Positions 27,391-36,124 of a stretch of DNA of 64,000 nucleotides are shown piece by piece. The stretch is taken from positions 1-64,000 of IMG/VR virus record IMGVR_UViG_3300047445_000153. One strand, given 5' to 3'. This DNA is from a virus. The notes beneath the pieces were generated by a model. That model searched no databases. It was given only the letters and a program-made list of their open reading frames with translations, and was not told the origin of the DNA. A program made the translations under genes and the position numbers. Within the stretch, counting starts at the first letter, position 1. Each line of letters opens with the position of its first letter.

Positions 27391-27967
27391 GGTCCACGCC
27401 GACACGGTGGCCGAAGCCCTGTCGATCTTGAGGCAGTACCCCGGCTTTGACGTGGAGAATCCCACCCCGGTACGCGTGAAGGGCGTAGAGTGCCGCGACG
27501 CCGTCTATGCGCCGACCGAGCTGGAAGAGCTGCACATCTACCCCGCTCTCGCTGGCTCGGGTGGCAACGGCGGTCTGTTTCAGATCATCATTGGCGTGGT
27601 GATGGTTATCGTCGGCATCGTGCTTAGCGTCTTCGGGTACGGCGCTGGCACACCGCTGATTACGAGCGGTGCGATGATGATCCTGGGGGGCATCCTCCAG
27701 ATGCTCGCGCCAACCCCGAAGTCGAACACTGGCAGCTCAGACCAGTCGCTCTATGTCCCCTCGAACCAGAACACCGTGAAGATCGGCACGCGCATCCCGC
27801 TGATCTATGGCCGCGTGCGTCACTTCGGGCACTACCTGTCGTTCAACGTCGACTCGAAGCGCCTGGACGACAGCACCATGAACCTTGCTGGCTACTGTAG
27901 CGGTCGCACCGACGCCAACGGGAACCGATACTCCTACGGCCAGGATGGCCACTGCCTGCTCGCATAA
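27335..27967 (+). CDS. tail assembly protein I-like
   Basis: ubiquitin-like N-terminus ending GSGG, hydrophobic segments, NTVKIGTRIPLIYG. Confidence 0.85.
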   Translation: MKTIYLHGSLKELHPEPIKVHADTVAEALSILRQYPGFDVENPTPVRVKGVECRDAVYAPTELEELHIYPALAGSGGNGGLFQIIIGVVMVIVGIVLSVFGYGAGTPLITSGAMMILGGILQMLAPTPKSNTGSSDQSLYVPSNQNTVKIGTRIPLIYGRVRHFGHYLSFNVDSKRLDDSTMNLAGYCSGRTDANGNRYSYGQDGHCLLA

Positions 27968-27968
27968 T

Positions 27969-30900
27969 ATGACCGACGCCGTAATCAACTACCCGAAACT
28001 CAGCGGAGCCGGTGGGGGCCAGAAGCAGCCCAGCCGCACCGACGACAACCTTTTCTCGCGCGACGTGGTAGAGATGGTCTTCGCCCTCGGTGAAGGCCCG
28101 ATTCGTGGCCCGGTCGATGGCATGAAGACGATCTACGTCGGCGGGACCCCGCTGATGTCTCAGGACGGGAGTGTCAACTTCGACAGCTTCAACGTCGGGA
28201 TCATGCGGGGCCACGCGGGCGATCCCCCGGTCAACTACCGCCTCGGCGGTGAGACGTCGAATACCGCGGTGGGCGTGCGGCTCTTCCAAGGGACTTGGGT
28301 CAGCCGAGCCACCAATGATTCGTTGAAGGGCAAGGTTGACCAGCTGCAAGCGCGGATGCTCTTCAACACGTTGTACAAGTCGAATGACGATGGCACGTTC
28401 AATCACACCGCGTCATTCGAGATCCAGTACCGCCAATCCACCAGCCCGAACTGGACGGCGGTCAACGGTGGAACGATCAACGTCACGGGCAAGACGACGG
28501 CGGGGTATGTCGTCGACTACGTGTGGGACGTGCCGCGTGTGAACGACACGTGGGTCATCCGGGTGAAGAAGAACAACCCTGATTCAAGCACCACAGATTT
28601 CGCCGACTTCAGCTGGGAGTCCTTTCAAGAGGTCACGAAGGGCAACCGCACGTACGATCGCGTGGCGCTCATGCACGTCGTCGCGCTCGCGACTAGCCAG
28701 TTCGGCTCGGTTCCGGAAATCGGCCTCGATATTGACGGTCTTGAGATCTTGGTCCCGACGAACTACAACCCGGATCTGCGTACCTACTCTGGTGCCTGGG
28801 ATGGGTCGTTCAAGCAGGCGTGGACGAACAACCCTGCGTGGGTTCTCTATGACCTGATCATGAACCCCAACTACGGGCTGCGAAAGTACTACCCGTGGTT
28901 GACCTGCAATCGCTTTGACTTCTACGACGCTGCGGTGTTTTGCGATACGCCAGTGGCGAACGGACGGGGTGGGGCGCAGCCGCGCTACACGTTCAACATG
29001 TCGATCAAGGACCAGCAGTCTGGGCTGGACATGTTGCAATACGTGGCGGGCTCGTTCGGTGCGATCATCTTTGATGACGCGACTGGAATGGTCCATCTGC
29101 GCGTCGACAAGTGGGAAGAACCCACCCTGCTCTTCACTCCCGAGAACGTGACGCCCGAGGGCTTCACCTACACGTTCACGGACATGACGACTCGATACAA
29201 CGATCTCACCGTCAAGTTCGTGAACCCAGATCTTGACTGGCAAGAGGACATTCGTCCCGCTCGCAGCCCGGACCACATCGCTCTGAACGGAAGCATTCCG
29301 CTCACCTTCGATGCTGTTGGCTGTACCGACGAGCATGAAGCGCTGCGTCGTGCCCACTACCGCCTCATCACGGCGACGACGGAATGCGCCACGGTGACGT
29401 TCACGACCGCGCGGCTCGGTGTCCTTCTCGACCCGTACAAGACGATCTACGTCGCCGACCCAGTGACGGGCTGGGCTACGAGCGGCCGGATCAAGTCGAT
29501 CGCTAACGGCAAGATCAACCTTCGTGACCCGATCTACTTCACGCAGAACCAGAACTTCGGCCTTCGCTTGCAAACGACCACCGGGCTCGTGAACCTCGTG
29601 GTCAACCCAGGCAAGGTCGGCGCGGTGTACGAGCTGTTGATCGTGAGCGGCGTGCTGCCGCCTAACATCCCTGACCGCACCGTGTTCTCGATCGAGGACA
29701 ACGGCGGCTTCGGCTTGGCCAAGCCGTTCCGCGTCATGTCGATTGAACCGGTCGACAACAACCCGAACCAGTTCACTATCACTGCTGTTGAGATGAACGT
29801 CAACAAGCAGTGGGCGGCAGACAACTGCATCCCAATTGGTTCGGTTCCCTACTCGTTCAAGAACCCGTTGATCCCGCCCCCGCCAACCAACCTCGTTGCC
29901 GAGTCCGGTACCGACATGCTGCTGCTCGGCCAGGATGGTTCGATCATGGCGCGGATCTTCGCGCACTGGGACCCACCGGGCAACGCGCTGGTCGAGAAGT
30001 ACATCATCCGCTGGCGCGAAAGCCTCCAGTCGACGTGGTTCGAGACGAACAGCACGGGTGAAGGCGTGATCCTTGCACCTTGCAAGACCGGTACCCTGTA
30101 CGACATCGTGGTGGAGGCGGTGAGCGCGTTCGGCTACCGCAGCGCGCAGCTCGCGATGTGGAACTACAAGTGTGTCGGCAAGGACCAGCCCCCGAGCAAC
30201 GTGAAGAACTTCCGCTTCGAGCGGCGCGCACTCGACATCCTGCTGAGCTGGGACGCGATCCCTGACCTCGACCGCTTCGGCTACGAGATCCGGCTGGGAG
30301 ACACGTGGGATACCGCGAAGGTTCTGATCACTGACTATGCGGCGACGAAGTATGCGTGGACGACGGATACGGGAGGCTCGTACAGCTTCCTGATCCGAGC
30401 GAAGGATACGTCGGGTAACTACTCGCCGCAGGCCACGCTGTGCTTGGCGCTCCTCGCTGGACCGTCGCCGGTCAGCGGTGTGATCGCGGTTCAGTCGGGC
30501 AACTTCGTCGACATCCGCTGGGACCCGAATCCCGAGGACAACATTCTCGACTACGAGATCCGTGAAGGAGCTACCTGGGCCACCGCGATCTTTCTCGCGA
30601 AGGTCAAGTCTACGAGCTACCACGTGACGGCGGGCGCCGCGGGCACGCGCCTATTCTGGCTCAAGGCCATCGCTTCACCGGGGATCTACTCCGACAAGGC
30701 GACGTTCGTCACGACCGACATCGCGAAGTCCGACAACACCAACCTGCTGTACACGACCGACGAAGTGGTGAACAACTTCCAAGGTGCGAAGTACAACATG
30801 GTCACGTACGGCCCGAACCAGCTGCGTATGGACGACGGCCAAACCAAGTCGGAGTACATGTTCTCGGTCGCGCTGCCCGATGTGTTCAAGGCGCAGAACA

Positions 30901-31562
30901 GCTTGTTCATCGGGCTGAACGCCATCGTCGACGACAAGACGACGTGGGCTCAATCCACGTTCCCCTGGAATGACCCGATCGCAAACAAGACATGGACGAC
31001 GCCGGGTGACGTCGCCTCGATCGTGTATAGCATCCAGATCGCAATGTCGGTAGGACTCCCGGCTAATGTCCTGTACCAGTGGCGGCTCGACAACGTGCTC
31101 ACCTACGCGGGCACCGGCGAGGATGGTGCGGTGGTCGAGAACCAGACCGTCACCTACAAGCCGAGCAAGTTCGGGGCGGGCCTCTGGTGTCAGGTCGCGC
31201 CGCTTCAACCGCTGCCGACTAAGGTGAAGTACAGCACCAACGTGCCGAACGCTTTCTCGATGAGCTTCTGGATCCTTCCTGATGACCTGACCGACAAGGT
31301 CTTCGCCACCGTGGTTGGCCGGGATGGCAAGTTCATCCGCATCGGCTACACCGCAGCTACGCAGTCACTGTATGCGATCGACAACGATGGTACGAAGGTA
31401 TCGATGCCGGTTGGTCTGCTTGTCGGCCAGCGCTACCTCGTCGGCTTGTCGCAGGACTTGAACGATCGCCGGATCTACTTCGGCAAAGAGAATGGCGCGT
31501 GGTATCGCGCGTCGATCGCGAAGGCTGGCATTGGTGCCGGAATCTACGTCCAACTGTATTGA
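27969..31562 (+). CDS. central tail fibre / host specificity protein J-like
   Basis: ALGEGPIRG, WDGSFK.AWTNNPAW, PRYTFN, FN3 repeats. Confidence 0.92.
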   Translation: MTDAVINYPKLSGAGGGQKQPSRTDDNLFSRDVVEMVFALGEGPIRGPVDGMKTIYVGGTPLMSQDGSVNFDSFNVGIMRGHAGDPPVNYRLGGETSNTAVGVRLFQGTWVSRATNDSLKGKVDQLQARMLFNTLYKSNDDGTFNHTASFEIQYRQSTSPNWTAVNGGTINVTGKTTAGYVVDYVWDVPRVNDTWVIRVKKNNPDSSTTDFADFSWESFQEVTKGNRTYDRVALMHVVALATSQFGSVPEIGLDIDGLEILVPTNYNPDLRTYSGAWDGSFKQAWTNNPAWVLYDLIMNPNYGLRKYYPWLTCNRFDFYDAAVFCDTPVANGRGGAQPRYTFNMSIKDQQSGLDMLQYVAGSFGAIIFDDATGMVHLRVDKWEEPTLLFTPENVTPEGFTYTFTDMTTRYNDLTVKFVNPDLDWQEDIRPARSPDHIALNGSIPLTFDAVGCTDEHEALRRAHYRLITATTECATVTFTTARLGVLLDPYKTIYVADPVTGWATSGRIKSIANGKINLRDPIYFTQNQNFGLRLQTTTGLVNLVVNPGKVGAVYELLIVSGVLPPNIPDRTVFSIEDNGGFGLAKPFRVMSIEPVDNNPNQFTITAVEMNVNKQWAADNCIPIGSVPYSFKNPLIPPPPTNLVAESGTDMLLLGQDGSIMARIFAHWDPPGNALVEKYIIRWRESLQSTWFETNSTGEGVILAPCKTGTLYDIVVEAVSAFGYRSAQLAMWNYKCVGKDQPPSNVKNFRFERRALDILLSWDAIPDLDRFGYEIRLGDTWDTAKVLITDYAATKYAWTTDTGGSYSFLIRAKDTSGNYSPQATLCLALLAGPSPVSGVIAVQSGNFVDIRWDPNPEDNILDYEIREGATWATAIFLAKVKSTSYHVTAGAAGTRLFWLKAIASPGIYSDKATFVTTDIAKSDNTNLLYTTDEVVNNFQGAKYNMVTYGPNQLRMDDGQTKSEYMFSVALPDVFKAQNSLFIGLNAIVDDKTTWAQSTFPWNDPIANKTWTTPGDVASIVYSIQIAMSVGLPANVLYQWRLDNVLTYAGTGEDGAVVENQTVTYKPSKFGAGLWCQVAPLQPLPTKVKYSTNVPNAFSMSFWILPDDLTDKVFATVVGRDGKFIRIGYTAATQSLYAIDNDGTKVSMPVGLLVGQRYLVGLSQDLNDRRIYFGKENGAWYRASIAKAGIGAGIYVQLY

Positions 31563-31564
31563 TC

Positions 31565-32026
31565 ATGCCGCACACAATCTCTGACGTTACGATCAAGTCA
31601 ACCCTGCTCGACGACGACAGCTTCCCGGCGTTGCTCTACGGCGACGCCCCAGCTGGCTTCTCGAAGTTCCAAAACTTCTTCGCGGGTGACTACACCTACA
31701 AGAACGCGATCTTCCGCCTCGGGATGGAGTCGGAGAACGGGGACCGGGGCATCATCGAAAAGCTCCAGCTGGTCGTCGATGTCCCCGACATCTTCGACCG
31801 GGGCTCGAAGATCATCAACGTGGCGAACAGCGTGCACGTCAACTTCAACCGCACGTTCCACATTCCACCCACGATGGTCGTGGCCGTGGAGAGCGCGAGT
31901 GATGCGTGCGTGGCGCGCGTGGTGGACGGCTCGGTGACGAAGACGGGCTTCGACTGCTACCTCGAACGTACGGTGGACAAGGCGAAGATCACAGGCGCGC
32001 TGACCTGGGCTGCGCACGCGTACTAA
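31565..32026 (+). CDS. small tail tip protein (lectin-like beta fold)
   Basis: VDVPD..DRG..FNRTFHIPP..VTKTGF..WAAHAY pattern. Confidence 0.6.
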   Translation: MPHTISDVTIKSTLLDDDSFPALLYGDAPAGFSKFQNFFAGDYTYKNAIFRLGMESENGDRGIIEKLQLVVDVPDIFDRGSKIINVANSVHVNFNRTFHIPPTMVVAVESASDACVARVVDGSVTKTGFDCYLERTVDKAKITGALTWAAHAY

Positions 32027-32085: not shown

Positions 32086-33567
32086 ATGCAGCAATACACT
32101 CAGATTCCAGACAGTGCGCGAGTCTCCGACTCGCTGCTGCCGCTCCTGAATAACGACCAGACCGCGATCTCGCGCAACTCCGGCCCGAACTTCCCGACCG
32201 TGGGGCTGGTCGTTGGCATGCCCTACTACAGCACGAGCCAGAACAAGCTCTATCGGCTGTCGAGCGTGTCACCGCTCACGTGGGTGGTCGAGCTGGATTA
32301 CACGCGTCCCTTCGCCTATCAGGACAGCGTGGACGCGGCTAACGCGAACGCGAACGCGCGGGTGTCGCGAGCTGGCGACACCATGACCGGTTACCTGACG
32401 CTGGTCAACGACCCGGTCTCCGCGCTGCACGCCGCGTCGAAACGGTACGTCGATGCACAGGCAACGAATGCAATCAACAGCGCGAACTCGCGGGTCTCGC
32501 GTGGCGGCGACAGCATGTCGGGGTTCCTGACGCTGTACACCGATCCACAGCAGCCCTACCACGCCGCGACGAAGAACTACGTCGACTACCTCTACAACGT
32601 GGTGCAGGGCGCGAAGCTGAACCGTAACGGTGACACGCTCGGAGAGGTCTTCAACAACGGCTGGTACCGCTCGAACGGCGTGACGGGCTGGTACAGCCAG
32701 ACCTTCGGCGGCGGGATCTTCATGCAGGATACGTCCAACGTGCGTATCTACGGCGGCAAGGGCTTCAGCACCGACTGGCACTCGCTCGAACAGGGCACGG
32801 GGATGATTTGGACGAGTGGCTACGGCTGGCTTCACGAGCGCTTCGCGTCCAAGAGCGCCGAGGGCGCCCTGACTTCGGTCGGTACGCTGAACAGCCAGCC
32901 GAGTGGCGTCGTGCTGCCGCAGGCTTTCTACCTCCAGAAGAGCGGCAGTCAGGTGCAGCTGGTGCGTACGCTCGGCAACTGCAACTGCAACTGCGCCTGC
33001 ACGTGCTTCCCGGCTGGGACGCGGATCCTGATGGGCGACCGCAAGACGTGGCGCACCGTTGAGTCGCTGATGGTTGGCGAGATCGTCATGACCCCCACCG
33101 GCCCCGAGCCGATCATCGAGATCGAGACGCCGTTCCTCGGCGAGCGCTCGATGTGCATGTTCGCCGACGGCTCGCTCAAGTGGACCGATGACCATGCGTT
33201 CTGGACGCGCCGCGACGGCGTGGAAGGCTTCGCGGTGGTCGACAAGGCCTCGTTCATGAACGGGGTCCATGCGGGCGTCGTGAAGGGCCTGAATGACCAT
33301 GACGACCTACTGGAGCTGAACGACAAGCTCGACGAGTTCGCGCATCTCGATGGCTGGAAGAAGAAACGCGTGTTCCGCTACCCCGCCCCCGCCGAGACCA
33401 AGGTCTACCTGCCGATCGTCGGTGGCTCCCACATGATCATCGCGGAAGGCTTCGTCGTCAGCGCTGGCATGGACGAAGCCACCTTCGACTACGACAGCTT
33501 CGAGTGGAAGGGCATGGCCCTCGCCCACGTGCCGCTCAACAAGGAGCTGTTCAATGCTCGTCCATAA
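32086..33567 (+). CDS. tail fibre with Cys-rich motif and C-terminal Hint domain
   Basis: GDTMTG..HAA(S/T)K.YVD fibre repeats; GWY..GGGIFMQD shufflon/fibre-like motif; NCNCNCACT; CFPAGTRI (Hint block A), TDDH (block B), VY..V..SH..AEGFVVS (block F/G). Confidence 0.8.
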   Translation: MQQYTQIPDSARVSDSLLPLLNNDQTAISRNSGPNFPTVGLVVGMPYYSTSQNKLYRLSSVSPLTWVVELDYTRPFAYQDSVDAANANANARVSRAGDTMTGYLTLVNDPVSALHAASKRYVDAQATNAINSANSRVSRGGDSMSGFLTLYTDPQQPYHAATKNYVDYLYNVVQGAKLNRNGDTLGEVFNNGWYRSNGVTGWYSQTFGGGIFMQDTSNVRIYGGKGFSTDWHSLEQGTGMIWTSGYGWLHERFASKSAEGALTSVGTLNSQPSGVVLPQAFYLQKSGSQVQLVRTLGNCNCNCACTCFPAGTRILMGDRKTWRTVESLMVGEIVMTPTGPEPIIEIETPFLGERSMCMFADGSLKWTDDHAFWTRRDGVEGFAVVDKASFMNGVHAGVVKGLNDHDDLLELNDKLDEFAHLDGWKKKRVFRYPAPAETKVYLPIVGGSHMIIAEGFVVSAGMDEATFDYDSFEWKGMALAHVPLNKELFNARP

Positions 33568-34255
33568 AAGCCTGATCCCCACGGATCTCTCAGAAGAAGA
33601 CGCCGCTCGAATCACCGACATCGTCACCGTGCTGCCTACGGAGACGGGCTTCGTCTTGCAGTGCGCATCGCTCAGCCTCTACTGGCAGTTCAACATGAAC
33701 CTCGTCCAGTATGGTAACGACATCATGTACTTGACCCGCACGCGCGGAGGTACGTGGGCCGTGATGTGGGCGACGGATCTGCACGAGTCGCGTGACAGCT
33801 GGTCTGAGGCGATGCTGCGCAAGAACGTCGATGAGTTCCGCCCGGTGGTGATGATCGGCATCAACCCCGAGAAGACCGACTACACGGCGATCCTCTTCTG
33901 CAACACACGCGAACCGAACAACCCGAACCCCACGGTCGACAACTCGACGGACAGCGGCGACATGGCCATGAAGCGGTTGATGCCGAGCATCGAACCGCTG
34001 CTGCAACGGCACTGGGCCAAGCACAAGCTACTCAAGCACACGAAGACGAACGACTCGCTCGCGGCGCTTGAGGCCCAGGTCGATCTGCTGACGAGCTGGT
34101 TGATCGAGCTGCTGCCTGCTGAGAAGGTGCAGCGACTCATCGATGCGGGCGTGCTGACGCTGAAGGATGAAGCCGCTACCCTCGACGACGTGGTGGCCTT
34201 CAAGACAGCCTTGCGAGAACGCCAGCAGGTCTACCTCACCACCATCGGCAAATGA
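33554..34255 (+). CDS. hypothetical protein in fibre/rSAM operon
   Basis: overlaps both neighbouring genes; helical C-terminus. Confidence 0.7.
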   Translation: MLVHKSLIPTDLSEEDAARITDIVTVLPTETGFVLQCASLSLYWQFNMNLVQYGNDIMYLTRTRGGTWAVMWATDLHESRDSWSEAMLRKNVDEFRPVVMIGINPEKTDYTAILFCNTREPNNPNPTVDNSTDSGDMAMKRLMPSIEPLLQRHWAKHKLLKHTKTNDSLAALEAQVDLLTSWLIELLPAEKVQRLIDAGVLTLKDEAATLDDVVAFKTALRERQQVYLTTIGK

Positions 34256-35598
34256 CAACCTTCGTCCTCAAAACGGCCGAGGGCCGCGACTTCTTCTACA
34301 ACAACATGCGCAGCACGCTGGTCGACGCCTGCACGGGTCGCCCCGTGCTCGCTCCGCGAGAGGTTGACACCCCTCGAAGCCCTGCCCCGCAAGACTTCCG
34401 CAAGTCGGAAACGATCCGGACGCTGAAGATCCAGATGGGTCTGTCGTGCAACTACAGCTGCGAGTATTGCTCGCAGCGGTTCGTGCCGCACGCGGAGCCC
34501 ACCGGCCCCTACTCGGTCGATCACTTCATCTCGCGCCTGAGCTGGAACGCCTCGCTCGCGGACGACGCCACGGTGGAGTTCTGGGGTGGCGAGCCACTGG
34601 TCTACTGGAAGACGCTGGTCCCGCTCGTCGAGCAGCTGCGCATTCGCTACCCGGCGCTGACCTTCAAGATGATCACGAACGGGTCGCTGCTCGATCCGAT
34701 GAAGGCGAGCTGGCTGATCGCGAATGGCTTCCACATCGGCATCTCGCACGACGGTCCTGGCCAAGCCGCACGCGGGCCGGACCCGCTCGATGATCCCGAG
34801 AAGCGCGAGGCGATCCTGATGCTGTACCGGCGCCTGCGACCGCTCGGGCGTATCAGTTTTAATGCAATGCTGCACTCGCAAAATACATCGCGTGCGGCGA
34901 TACAACAGTTCTTCGTCCGGCTGACGAACGACGCGGAAGTGCCCATCGGCGAGGGCATGTTTGTGGATGCCTACGACGAGGGCGGCAGGGGTATGTCTTT
35001 CCTTGACGCTCAGGATCACGTCGACTATCGTCGCAAGGCGTTCGACGAGCTGAAGGCGGGGATGGCTCTCAATTTCAGCTCGGTGACCGAGAAGATCTAC
35101 GACTTCGCAGACTCCTTGCAAACGGGTCGCTTGGCGTCCACCGTTGGCCAGAAGTGCGGTTCCGATCGCTCCGACAGCCTCACGGTGACGCTCGACGGCG
35201 ATGTCCTCACGTGCCAGAACGTATCGGCTGTCTCCGTCGCCCCGAACGGAAAGAGCCACCGGGCTGGCTCGATCGAAGACATGGCTGCGGTGCGCGTGCA
35301 GTCCTCGCGCCACTGGTCGACCCGCGAGCACTGTTCCAGCTGCCCTGTCGTGCAGCTATGCAAAGGCTCTTGCATGTTCCTCGAAGGCGATCTCTGGGAT
35401 GTCACGTGCGATACCGCCTACAGCGATAACGTCGTGTTCCTGGCGACTGCCCTCTTGGAGCTGACAGGCTGTACGTTGCAACGCATCGAGCCGATGACTG
35501 GTTCGCTGCCCGAAACCCGCCAGAGTGTCTTCGGACCTCTGGCGCATAAGCGGACCACCACCCGCAAAATCATACGGATCGAAACGGAAAAATCATGA
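34252..35598 (+). CDS. radical SAM protein with SPASM domain
   Basis: CNYSCEYC; FWGGEPL; ITNGSLL; ISHDG; C..GDVLTC..CSSC..LCKGSC..C SPASM cysteines. Confidence 0.92.
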   Translation: MTTFVLKTAEGRDFFYNNMRSTLVDACTGRPVLAPREVDTPRSPAPQDFRKSETIRTLKIQMGLSCNYSCEYCSQRFVPHAEPTGPYSVDHFISRLSWNASLADDATVEFWGGEPLVYWKTLVPLVEQLRIRYPALTFKMITNGSLLDPMKASWLIANGFHIGISHDGPGQAARGPDPLDDPEKREAILMLYRRLRPLGRISFNAMLHSQNTSRAAIQQFFVRLTNDAEVPIGEGMFVDAYDEGGRGMSFLDAQDHVDYRRKAFDELKAGMALNFSSVTEKIYDFADSLQTGRLASTVGQKCGSDRSDSLTVTLDGDVLTCQNVSAVSVAPNGKSHRAGSIEDMAAVRVQSSRHWSTREHCSSCPVVQLCKGSCMFLEGDLWDVTCDTAYSDNVVFLATALLELTGCTLQRIEPMTGSLPETRQSVFGPLAHKRTTTRKIIRIETEKS

Positions 35599-35984
35599 GC
35601 ACACCGCAAGCACCACAGCCACAGCAAGACCCGATGCCCCTCATCCGCACGTTGCAGGCGCAGCGCAACATGGCGCTCGACCAGCTGGCCGACACCAGCG
35701 CCGCGCTCGAACACGTGCAAGCCGTACTGCGTGGCACGCAGGAACTGGCCGCGAAGCAGCAGTCGGAGATCGACGATCTGAACATGCGGATGGGCAAGAC
35801 GCTCGCCGCGCTGGCGAGCATGCAAGACTGCAACGCGAAGCTCACCGAGCAGAACCTCGATCTGCAAATCGATCTGGACGAGGCCCGTCGAGTTCCGGAC
35901 GCGGAGATCGCGGTGGCCGTAGAGTCACCGGCAGGCGTGCTGACGCTGCCGGTGGCTTATCCGTCTGCTTCGGACGAGCTGTAA
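35595..35984 (+). CDS. coiled-coil hypothetical protein
   Basis: coupled to rSAM stop; LQAQRNMALD heptads. Confidence 0.65.
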   Translation: MSTPQAPQPQQDPMPLIRTLQAQRNMALDQLADTSAALEHVQAVLRGTQELAAKQQSEIDDLNMRMGKTLAALASMQDCNAKLTEQNLDLQIDLDEARRVPDAEIAVAVESPAGVLTLPVAYPSASDEL

Positions 35985-36098: not shown

Positions 36099-36124
36099 AA
36101 AGGACACCGAACGGTGTCCTTTTT
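36099..36124 (+). terminator. intrinsic terminator
   Basis: AAAGGACACC-gaac-GGTGTCCTTT plus T-run. Confidence 0.8.

Follow-up and report, generated by a model that had tools for sequence, protein, structure and literature searches.

Some phage fibres are known to lose a C-terminal chaperone domain through serine-protease chemistry. S74 intramolecular chaperone domains, as in endosialidase tailspikes and the L-shaped fibres of phage T5, have a fold unrelated to that of Hint domains and use a Ser-Lys dyad instead of a Cys thioester. Here we describe a viral side tail-fibre protein of 493 aa, P0001, that ends in a Hint domain; like S74, this is a C-terminal fibre domain expected to remove itself after assembly. 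S74 itself has no Pfam match in P0001 at E ≤ 1. The locus lies in the window, i.e., the whole stretch of DNA analysed, 64,000 nt of IMG/VR record IMGVR_UViG_3300047445_000153 (Table 1).

BIL domains, assigned to types A, B and C by Pietrokovski and co-workers, have the fold in common with the P0001 Hint, as BIL2 of Tetrahymena BUBL (6tmm) and a C. thermocellum domain (2lwy) align to it with Z of 17.0 and 14.6. Both BIL domains and the P0001 Hint have an N-terminal Cys nucleophile and a block B His, and both are found in variable, non-housekeeping proteins, although they are only 15–20% identical. The family profile reaches 6tmm and 2lwy only through their first 30–70 residues (E 4e-5 and 0.012). 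Unlike BIL domains, the Hint subfamily of P0001 is consistently placed at the extreme C-terminus, never has a terminal Asn, has its own extension of 15–20 aa (D-Y-x4-W), and is carried by phage tail fibres. BIL domains process by cleavage as well as splicing, as described in excerpts of PMC3091684.

The hedgehog Hog/Hint domain (1at0) also shares the fold, with Z 13.7 over P0001 residues 307–462, and its sequence similarity is marginal (E 0.1–0.4 with the family profile). It too is a C-terminal domain, with the N-terminal part released via a Cys thioester without splicing, as predicted for P0001. On the other hand, the sterol-recognition region of hedgehog is larger than 33 aa, and the 33 aa after the P0001 Hint core leave no room for such an adduct recognition region. 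Inteins (gp41-1, and the DnaB and RecA mini-inteins) have the same fold at Z 13–15 and share blocks A and B, whereas P0001 lacks the His-Asn, the +1 nucleophile and the C-extein.

The SPASM enzymes CrpC/CrpA (PMC13692751), NxxcB/NxxcA (PMC9389541) and PapB (PMC12373016), in the excerpts of those papers, and QhpD cross-link Cys-rich substrates. Likewise, the radical SAM/SPASM enzyme encoded two genes downstream of the fibre gene adjoins a predicted Cys-rich protein substrate, an Asn-Cys ladder directly ahead of the Hint domain. The ladder reads N-x-x-C repeatedly, and the residues in between (N, D, A and Q) are acceptors tolerated by NxxcB according to the same excerpts (PMC9389541), while PapB is described there as able to use a C-terminal residue (PMC12373016). 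Unlike in these named systems, the predicted substrate here is a virion fibre.

In a literature search of main texts, mostly outside subscription journals, no published work was found that deals with tail fibres carrying a Hint domain or with radical SAM enzymes that act on tail fibres. Matches concern terminase inteins (PMC3556154, PMC5259590) and FhaB BILs (PMC3091684), judging from excerpts, and two JWF-related papers (PMC9228384, PMC9959647) contain neither 'Hint' nor 'radical SAM' in their text. Incidentally, a match to 10.1101/2024.10.28.620165 was produced by 'hint' as an ordinary word.

Hint domain at the C-terminus of P0001

P0001 consists of a fibre body, with PHROG tail-fibre matches at residues 77–131, followed by the ladder, the Hint domain and a short tail. 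Its gene follows the J gene, an order also seen in Achromobacter phages JWF and 2-1. A sequence-only reading of this DNA had pointed out CFPAGT, TDDH, SA at the site of the intein HN, a further tail and four extra Cys, and all of these are present at their places. Cys299, 301, 303 and 305 are at most eight residues ahead of Cys307 (codon TGC, 33004–33006), and the tail after SA is 33 residues (461–493).

In an AF2 model, residues 307–470 have a pLDDT of about 80–87. Foldseek matched this model to BIL domains, inteins and hedgehog, with 38 matches at E ≤ 0.001 and a best E of 2.5e-7. With VIA, the best match was 6tmm (Z 17.0, rmsd 2.5, 142 residues aligned), the gp41-1 intein scored Z 15.0, the C. 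thermocellum BIL 14.6 and 1at0 13.7, and inteins ranged over 13–15. All 28 chains at Z ≥ 8 are BIL domains, inteins, hedgehog or Vint, without exception. The alignments to BIL, intein and hedgehog span about residues 305–463; Cys307 is matched to intein residue 1, and A460 to the final intein residue (2imz residue 440).

The family profile, built from 45 members (alignment A2), reaches PDB intein chains with E of 1.3e-9 (8w20) and 2.8e-9 (PI-SceI). At E ≤ 0.01, the Pfam models matched among these members are Hom_end_hint (32), Hint (19), Vint (10) and Hint_2 (5). With the P0001 sequence alone, the best Pfam match is Hom_end_hint at E 0.12, with 12.7 bits versus a cut-off of 32.1, and single-sequence HMM scans of its Hint region gave no NCBIfam or PHROGs family match. 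Because the P0001 sequence itself is below every Pfam Hint model, its family membership rests on fold and family profiles, and an HMM search, as earlier proposed for a check, looks negative unless one of them is used. As the sequence-only reading had it, the last third of P0001 is confirmed by the model and the profiles to be a genuine hedgehog/intein-type (Hint) domain.

The residues for N-terminal chemistry are kept. Cys1 is found in 34/34 members in A2 and in all 128 family members with the position present, and H370, R354, S/T367 and D/E369 are each kept in 45/45; E393 is kept in 41 of 45 members and is Gly in P0001. At the intein-type end, A2 has S, G, A or T at position 459, while position 460 holds A, G or S in 44/45 and T in 1/45, so that none of the 45 aligned members has His-Asn there. 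The +1 position in P0001 is G461 instead of a Cys, Ser or Thr nucleophile, and the 154-aa core has neither an endonuclease insert nor a C-extein. Of 137 near-full-length members, 133 have at most 45 aa between the end of the domain and the C-terminus, with a median of 9 aa after the family motif.

Since a terminal Asn, a +1 nucleophile and a C-extein are all lacking, splicing is excluded for the P0001 Hint. With Cys1 and T/S-x-x-H kept and His-Asn and the +1 nucleophile absent, the domain at most forms a thioester, and then cleaves or transfers, which agrees with the earlier claim of a cleavage-only Hint. Judged by these residues, it would probably be able to cut itself off and do nothing else. 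In the extension G461–P493, which has pLDDT 60–73 and no regular secondary structure in the AF2 model, W474 is conserved in 43/45, Y469 in 38/45 and D468 in 33/45 (A2); the conserved D/N463, D468, Y469 and W474 could mean more than simple hydrolysis.

The P0001 Hint is a member of a large, distinct and so far unnamed subfamily at the extreme C-terminus of phage tail/fibre proteins. The subfamily comprises 378 clusters, almost always with the domain C-terminal, and members are only 26–39% identical to the P0001 Hint domain. Achromobacter phage JWF has a homologue that already carries the annotation 'Hom_end-associated Hint family protein', and in JWF gp028 the predicted junction reads S|CFPAG. 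A scan of genome contigs for such loci gave 2 loci.

Table 1 Features of the ladder-Hint-enzyme locus (positions in the window)
Feature	Position	Strand	Basis or remark
Central tail fibre J gene, upstream	27885..31562	+	phrog_31, E 3.5e-170
Side tail-fibre gene, P0001, 493 aa	32086..33567	+	ORF list and translation
Asn-Cys ladder, N298-C-N-C-N-C-A-C-T306	32977..33003	+	Read directly off the sequence
Hint block A, C307-F-P-A-G-T (CFPAGT)	33004..33021	+	Cys307, predicted nucleophile; T306/C307, predicted scissile bond
Hint-fold core, residues 307–460 (154 aa)	33004..33465	+	AF2 model; Foldseek and VIA matches
Hint block B, T367-D368-D369-H370	33184..33195	+	Residue conservation in alignment A2
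Last Hint strands, VYLPIVGGSHMIIAEGFVVSA, residues 440–460 (V440...S459-A460)	33403..33465	+	Inteins end in His-Asn there
Family-specific C-terminal extension, G461–P493 (33 residues)	33466..33564	+	Conserved D/N463, D468, Y469, W474
233-aa accessory protein	33554..34255	+	First 14 nt overlap the end of the fibre gene
Radical SAM/SPASM enzyme, 448 aa	34252..35598	+	phrog_1802, E 1.9e-60; likely ladder modifier
Small 129-aa ORF, last of the overlapping gene run	35595..35984	+	ORF list
Terminator-like hairpin after the unit, 10-pair stem then T-rich tail	36099..36122	+	Consensus scan only

Asn-Cys ladder, the downstream radical SAM gene and the Hint-less fibres

As the J gene is upstream, the ladder-Hint-enzyme unit is in the tail module. 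The enzyme has a SPASM domain (TIGR04085, 34.7 bits versus a cut-off of 27), and its CxxxCxxC (C66, C70 and C73) and the C-terminal cysteines are invariant in 8/8 aligned homologues. Its best named NCBIfam match is PapB (E 1.1e-15), at 57.7 bits versus a cut-off of 340, while the QhpD-type and anSME models score 46.9 versus 453 and 46.6 versus 349. With all scores far under the curated cut-offs, it was not assigned to any named ranthi- or sactisynthase equivalog (PapB, QhpD, CteB-like or anSME).

The 233-aa protein encoded between fibre and enzyme has no Pfam, PHROGs or NCBIfam family and is kept in JWF-like loci, some of which also have weak homologues of the 129-aa ORF. The best fold match, from the N-terminal domain of its model, is a weak one to SPP1 gp22 (Z 5.2), and an atlas look-up gave nothing usable. 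In Hint-less loci, three accessory-gene families occupy the place between the fibre gene and the enzyme gene; compared with these, the 233-aa protein gave hhalign probabilities of 0.1–0.2, i.e., no link.

Of 19 close homologues, 16 keep the ladder, with the pattern NCNCNC[AN]C[T]. Among 42 Hint clusters, 15 have both ladder and enzyme, 16 have neither, and 11 are untestable; no testable cluster has the ladder without the enzyme, and none has the enzyme without the ladder. Here we chose the rules ourselves, 'testable' meaning a 3-kb limit and a ladder meaning at least two CxC in 40 aa, and left out L069 and L070, whose Hint start is unresolved, and L038, which has no Hint. The association has a Fisher p of 3e-9, for clusters that are not phylogenetically independent and loci that were in part fetched with a pattern touching the ladder. 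Independent contrasts between ladder and enzyme number two on well-supported branches, both concordant, and seven on all branches.

In the wider family, 125 members have 20 or more residues ahead of the domain, and a ladder precedes the Hint in 30 of them; the other 95 have none, and 44 of these have a Pro/Gly-rich junction. On a Hint tree of 53 rows including P0001 (sequences below 150 aa and exact duplicates left out; 12 of 50 inner branches well supported), the ladder state switches at least eight times. For example, the Hint of locus L064 is 70.5% identical to that of the ladder locus L030, and L064 has neither ladder nor enzyme. Fibres with unrelated bodies carry one common Hint lineage.

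The four extra Cys had been listed together with the Hint domain. That they are a feature of it is not borne out; by comparison of these loci, the four Cys near Cys307 belong to the ladder, which follows the enzyme gene and not the Hint, a relationship new here. The ladder is read as a separate module and as the likely target of the radical SAM/SPASM enzyme, which would probably make thioether links from Cys to Asn, Asp or Ala.

Enzyme-centred loci show where fibres end when no Hint follows. Of at least 578 such loci, the 80 best were used, and 67 of these have at least 2.4 kb upstream; a fibre-like ORF ending in the ladder is found in 51 of the 67, and a ladder followed by a Hint in 9. The Hint-less proteins end 0–3 residues beyond the Cys307 column (alignment A6, read without the L014 row). 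In Ralstonia phage RSP15, gp048 ends ...NTNCQCGN, and the radical SAM gene is two genes further on. That fibres end at the ladder in Hint-less loci, a few residues from the P0001 Hint start, is new here, and this comparison favours a cut at T306/C307, where the sequence-only reading had placed it.

No C-terminal chaperone domain was found on the ladder fibres without Hint, so these do not bear out the earlier suggestion that the Hint may replace an S74 chaperone. We also looked for an accessory gene that might stand in for the Hint, one shared by all Hint-less loci and missing from every Hint locus, and none fits; the common accessory genes were rejected because locus L085 has a Hint plus both of them.

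Self-cleavage and other readings of the domain

N-terminal self-cleavage at T306/C307 is the best reading of the P0001 Hint. Cys307 would attack the Thr306 carbonyl for an N-to-S acyl shift assisted by T367 and H370, and the Thr306 thioester would then be resolved by water or a cellular thiol. A 187-aa Hint piece would fall away, leaving a 306-aa fibre with a new C-terminus at the Asn-Cys ladder (...GNCNCNCACT), which the enzyme two genes downstream would most likely modify. We consider it likely as a whole that residues 307 to about 477 are an autoprocessing domain cleaving itself at this bond, that the ladder is a separate, likely enzyme substrate, and that the Hint is a portable cap. Its occurrence on ladder and non-ladder fibres alike makes the Hint look like a portable, self-removing C-terminal cap. 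By analogy with the unrelated S74 chaperone, the cap would most likely serve for a time in folding, assembly or masking, although S74 chaperones work as trimers and most Hint domains are monomers.

Alternatively, much as the sequence-only reading had also suggested, the Cys307 thioester could be captured by a specific nucleophile in a hedgehog/BIL-like transfer, so that the mature fibre ends in an adduct or ring. The nucleophile could be a ladder Cys (giving a C-terminal thiolactone), a small molecule or, for an isopeptide link, a Lys or the N-terminus on a different chain or protein. Such chemistry is open to any Hint without a C-terminal Asn, the top structural match is the BIL domain 6tmm, the conserved extension might position a nucleophile, and the ladder gives four thiols close to the thioester. 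However, as 95 of the 125 members have no ladder, many with a Pro/Gly-rich junction in its place, capture by the ladder cannot be the general function of the family. Hint-less fibres end in the same ladder without any activation, and the post-Hint tail (33 aa in P0001; family median, 9 aa after the motif) is too small for a hedgehog-type recognition region. We regard transfer as unlikely. Its more specific form, in which the Thr306 thioester is captured by a ladder Cys or a neighbouring trimer chain and the resulting C-terminal thiolactone or isopeptide ring is then locked by enzyme-made thioethers, is quite doubtful. If it held, a virion protein would be matured by two successive RiPP-like chemistries, and the Hint-less fibres would have a simpler version of this tip.

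The Hint could also act as a C-terminal 'follower', a docking handle through which the radical SAM enzyme reaches the ladder, and remove itself afterwards. One overlapping gene run holds ladder, Hint and enzyme, and RiPP maturases often depend on a recognition segment that is cut away at a later stage, as also found in excerpts of PMC13692751. Yet this role is improbable, because the 51 Hint-less loci among the 67 enzyme-centred ones and the 16 Hint clusters without enzyme mean that Hint and enzyme do not need each other.

Distal C-terminal domains of fibres are often receptor binders, and an idle Hint could stay on the fibre as a distal knob for receptor binding or as a structural tip. The catalytic set, Cys1 (128/128) and S/T-x-x-H (45/45), is invariant across members with such low identity to the P0001 Hint, which argues for selection on catalysis, and one Hint lineage on fibres with unrelated bodies is unexpected for a host-specific binder, making the idle knob very improbable. 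A true or decayed intein, i.e., a mobile splicing element, is hardly credible despite the weak Hom_end_hint match (E 0.12) and the annotation of the JWF homologue, as P0001 has no terminal Asn, +1 Cys/Ser/Thr, C-extein or endonuclease insert and the same terminal architecture runs throughout the subfamily.

With self-cleavage as the preferred reading, phage tail proteins would have a second, unrelated self-removal device that uses hedgehog/intein chemistry, undescribed within the searched literature though spread across hundreds of them. Tag removal could be one use for this natural cleavage-only Hint, whose N-side context is very short (T/S|C-F-P-A-G, cut at the bar). Annotation and expression of such receptor-binding proteins would change, as the predicted mature fibre is 306 aa, not 493. 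The predicted cleavage would set the true C-terminus of the fibre at the Asn-Cys ladder, where a phage radical SAM enzyme probably acts.

A Hint domain at the end of a side tail fibre

The 493-aa protein P0001 is a side tail fibre. Residues 77-131 match PHROG tail-fibre models, and the gene comes after J, which encodes the central fibre (phrog_31, E 3.5e-170). This order is shared by the related Achromobacter phages JWF and 2-1, which have a homologous fibre after J. Among named homologues, those closest to the fibre come from Burkholderia. The source virus record, of which the window is a part, is 81,905 bp long and rated complete. One Burkholderia whole-fibre homologue (P0007) carries the name 'shufflon system plasmid conjugative transfer pilus tip adhesin PilV'. 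The probable source of the name is residues 179-230, which weakly resemble Shufflon_N (E 2.6e-5, below cut-off). The gene context points to a tail fibre. All features listed in the sequence-only reading were recovered in the ORF and translation of P0001.

Features of the fibre region in the window
Feature	Position	Strand	Basis or remark
175-aa ORF between J and fibre	31499-32026		weakly similar to H-type lectins (E 0.0011, below cut-off); kept in JWF-like loci
Side tail fibre P0001	32086..33567	+	ORF, 493 aa
Block A C-F-P-A-G-T, opened by Cys307	33004-33006 (Cys307 codon)	+	read from sequence
Block B T367-D-D-H370	33184-33195	+	read from sequence
V440...S459-A460	33403-33465	+	read from sequence; 33 residues after it
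Residue 463	33472-33474	+	three residues past Hint core
233-aa protein	33554-34255	+	no family match
Radical SAM/SPASM gene	34252-35598	+	phrog_1802 at 1.9e-60; SPASM model above cut-off; two genes downstream of fibre

HMM searches link the family to Hint proteins, but scans with the single sequence of P0001 yield hardly any signal. In these scans, the best Pfam match was Hom_end_hint (E 0.12, 32 residues long), and PHROGs and NCBIfam gave no match to the Hint domain. When phmmer was run against PDB, one marginal match was obtained (8w20, E 0.0098). A 45-member family profile matched inteins in the PDB (E 1.3e-9 and 2.8e-9), and Pfam matches at E ≤ 0.01 among the 45 members were Hom_end_hint (32), Hint (19), Vint (10) and Hint_2 (5).

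The Hint fold expected by the sequence-only reading is present in an AlphaFold2 model built with 19 homologues, where pLDDT is about 80-87 across residues 307-470 and the fibre body is poorly modelled. Foldseek returned 38 PDB matches at E ≤ 0.001, the top one being the Tetrahymena BIL2 domain (2.5e-7), followed by inteins, C. thermocellum BIL and hedgehog. VIA-align, run without Foldseek, gave Z scores of 17.0 for 6tmm (rmsd 2.5, 142 aa), 15.0 for the gp41-1 intein, 14.6 for 2lwy and 13.7 for hedgehog 1at0, and all 28 chains at Z ≥ 8 are Hint proteins. An ESM Atlas look-up agreed. The predicted fold settles the residues from Cys307 as a Hint domain. Cys307 aligns structurally with intein residue 1 and A460 with the last intein residue, so the structure bears out the earlier remark that SA occupies the place of the intein HN.

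A HMMER search of 1.84 billion representatives yielded 378 family clusters at E ≤ 0.001 (171 at E ≤ 1e-10). Among the 150 members listed out of these 378 clusters, 137 have a near-full-length domain, ending ≤45 aa from the C-terminus in 133 of the 137 (median, 9 residues past the family motif). Position 1 is Cys in 128/128 listed members with a resolved domain start, preceded by T in 55, S in 43 and C in 18. In a 45-sequence alignment, R354, S/T367, D/E369 and H370 are each kept in 45/45 and W373 in 44/45, while His/Asn at positions 459/460 occurs in 0/45. A family-specific extension beyond the Hint comprises D/N463 (Asp in 21 and Asn in 18, or 39/45 members), D468, Y469 and W474 (43/45). The parts N-terminal to the Hint span 5 to 2399 aa in the members listed. 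When ten long members were scanned with PHROGs, five matched tail, tail-fibre or virion-structural domains, two matched solely PHROGs of unknown function and three matched none; no match spans the Hint. Taken together, this is a dedicated C-terminal Hint of phage tail proteins, with its N-terminal chemistry intact and no way to splice.

More distant Hint relatives keep the His-Asn end. These giant proteins of 842-4119 aa (P0032, P0091, P0143, P0147 and P0159) have 4-5 tandem Hint-like repeats that finish in H-N-K, then G/S-C-F.

The Asn-Cys ladder and the radical SAM/SPASM enzyme

Four extra cysteines within eight residues of the thioester had been noted alongside the Hint. They are Cys299, 301, 303 and 305, immediately N-terminal to Cys307, and their home is an Asn-Cys ladder, GNCNCNCACT. 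A ladder of this kind precedes the Hint in 30/125 family members and is absent in 95/125, 44 of which have a Pro/Gly-rich junction. The extra cysteines are a different module from the Hint. In some members (L048, L055, L027, P0031, P0073 and P0162), long Cys-rich repeats of C-x-C-x-C-N-Y-like units, with up to 15 Cys per 40 residues, stand in front of the Hint in place of a short ladder.

Loci centred on the Hint, drawn from viral, genome and metagenome collections, were checked for a radical SAM/SPASM homologue within 3 kb, counting 42 clusters at 70% Hint identity. Ladder and enzyme occur together in 15 clusters, both are lacking in 16 testable ones, and neither occurs alone in any; 11 are not testable (Fisher p = 3e-9, with clusters related to one another). 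Because of this relatedness, a tree of Hint domains was built. Ladder and ladder-less rows alternate across it, which requires at least 8 changes of state, and ladder state equals enzyme state in every testable row. Since the two never disagree, all independent contrasts (2 on well-supported branches, 7 on all branches) are concordant. The Hint of locus L064 is 70.5% identical to a ladder-locus Hint, yet has neither ladder nor enzyme. Thus, the enzyme goes with the ladder, and Hints are exchanged independently among fibres.

A 109-kb viral contig (L025 and L027; also L044/L046) carries two different ladder-plus-Hint fibres in one phage. Behind each lies a separate radical SAM homologue, with 34% and 50% identity to the enzyme of the window.

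Among named families, the enzyme best matches SPASM enzymes that form thioethers, with every score far below its cut-off; among solved structures, 8vpo and anSME come closest (about E 1e-7). Published reports supply precedents. NxxcB joins Cys to the Asn beta-carbon within N-x-x-C and also accepts Ala, Gln and Asp (PMC9389541), CrpC modifies a Cys-rich protein with ranthionine links (PMC13692751), and PapB can use a C-terminal peptide residue (PMC12373016). The ladder likewise can be read as a repeated N-x-x-C, and across loci the residues in between include N, D, A and Q. From these precedents, thioether stapling of the fibre tip by the enzyme is our leading guess.

GenBank labels the JWF fibre homologue 'Hom_end-associated Hint family protein'; the product of the adjacent gene is entered as radical SAM or 'anaerobic sulfatase-maturating enzyme'. 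A full-text literature search found no paper on a Hint in a tail fibre or on a radical SAM enzyme acting on one.

In the 233-aa protein encoded between the two genes, residues 1-130 are confidently modelled as an alpha/beta domain that only weakly resembles SPP1 gp22 (Z 5.2), and the C-terminal helices are poorly modelled. Homologues of this protein occur in JWF-like loci and a few Hint-less ones (L090, L102, L141 and L151). Among the Hint-less loci L080-L151, a gene of ~203 aa lies between ladder fibre and radical SAM gene in 46, one of ~274 aa (a family including RSP15 gp047) in 31, and a third accessory gene of ~195 aa is found in 15; none has detectable kinship to the 233-aa protein.

Where the fibre ends and what the Hint may do

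Among the best 80 of at least 578 IMG/VR relatives of the enzyme, 67 loci have at least 2.4 kb upstream. Within 3.5 kb upstream, an ORF of at least 100 aa finishes in the ladder itself (e.g. YNCNCDCNCC-stop) in 51/67, the ladder is followed by a Hint in 9/67, and neither form is found in 7/67, three of which have a ladder-ending ORF farther off. Tail-fibre PHROGs match 7/10 sampled ladder-ending ORFs. Ralstonia phage RSP15 gp048 (L038:3410-4282) lacks a Hint and ends in NTNCQCGN; two genes downstream lies a radical SAM gene that shares 48% identity with that of the window. Although the annotation of gp048 reads 'putative side tail fiber protein; Fragment', it is probably a complete ladder fibre.

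In an alignment of Hint-less and Hint-bearing tails (one mis-framed row left out), the window's strand-plus-ladder aligns with Hint-less tails that stop 0-3 residues past the Cys307 column. The same end is thus produced in nature either by a stop codon or by a Hint. Of the indirect evidence at hand, this alternation at one point speaks most strongly for cleavage at T306|C307 and departure of the Hint, and we consider this cleavage reading as a whole quite probable.

Chemically, the thioester could instead be caught by one of the ladder thiols, by a different chain or by a small molecule. Such capture cannot be the general function of the family, and the tail after the Hint is too short to hold a recognition region of the hedgehog type. 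That the Hint serves to dock the enzyme is unlikely, since Hints are found without the enzyme and the enzyme without Hints. If the Hint is cleaved off, the simplest idea, by analogy with S74 chaperone domains, is that this cap may serve in folding, assembly or masking of the fibre.
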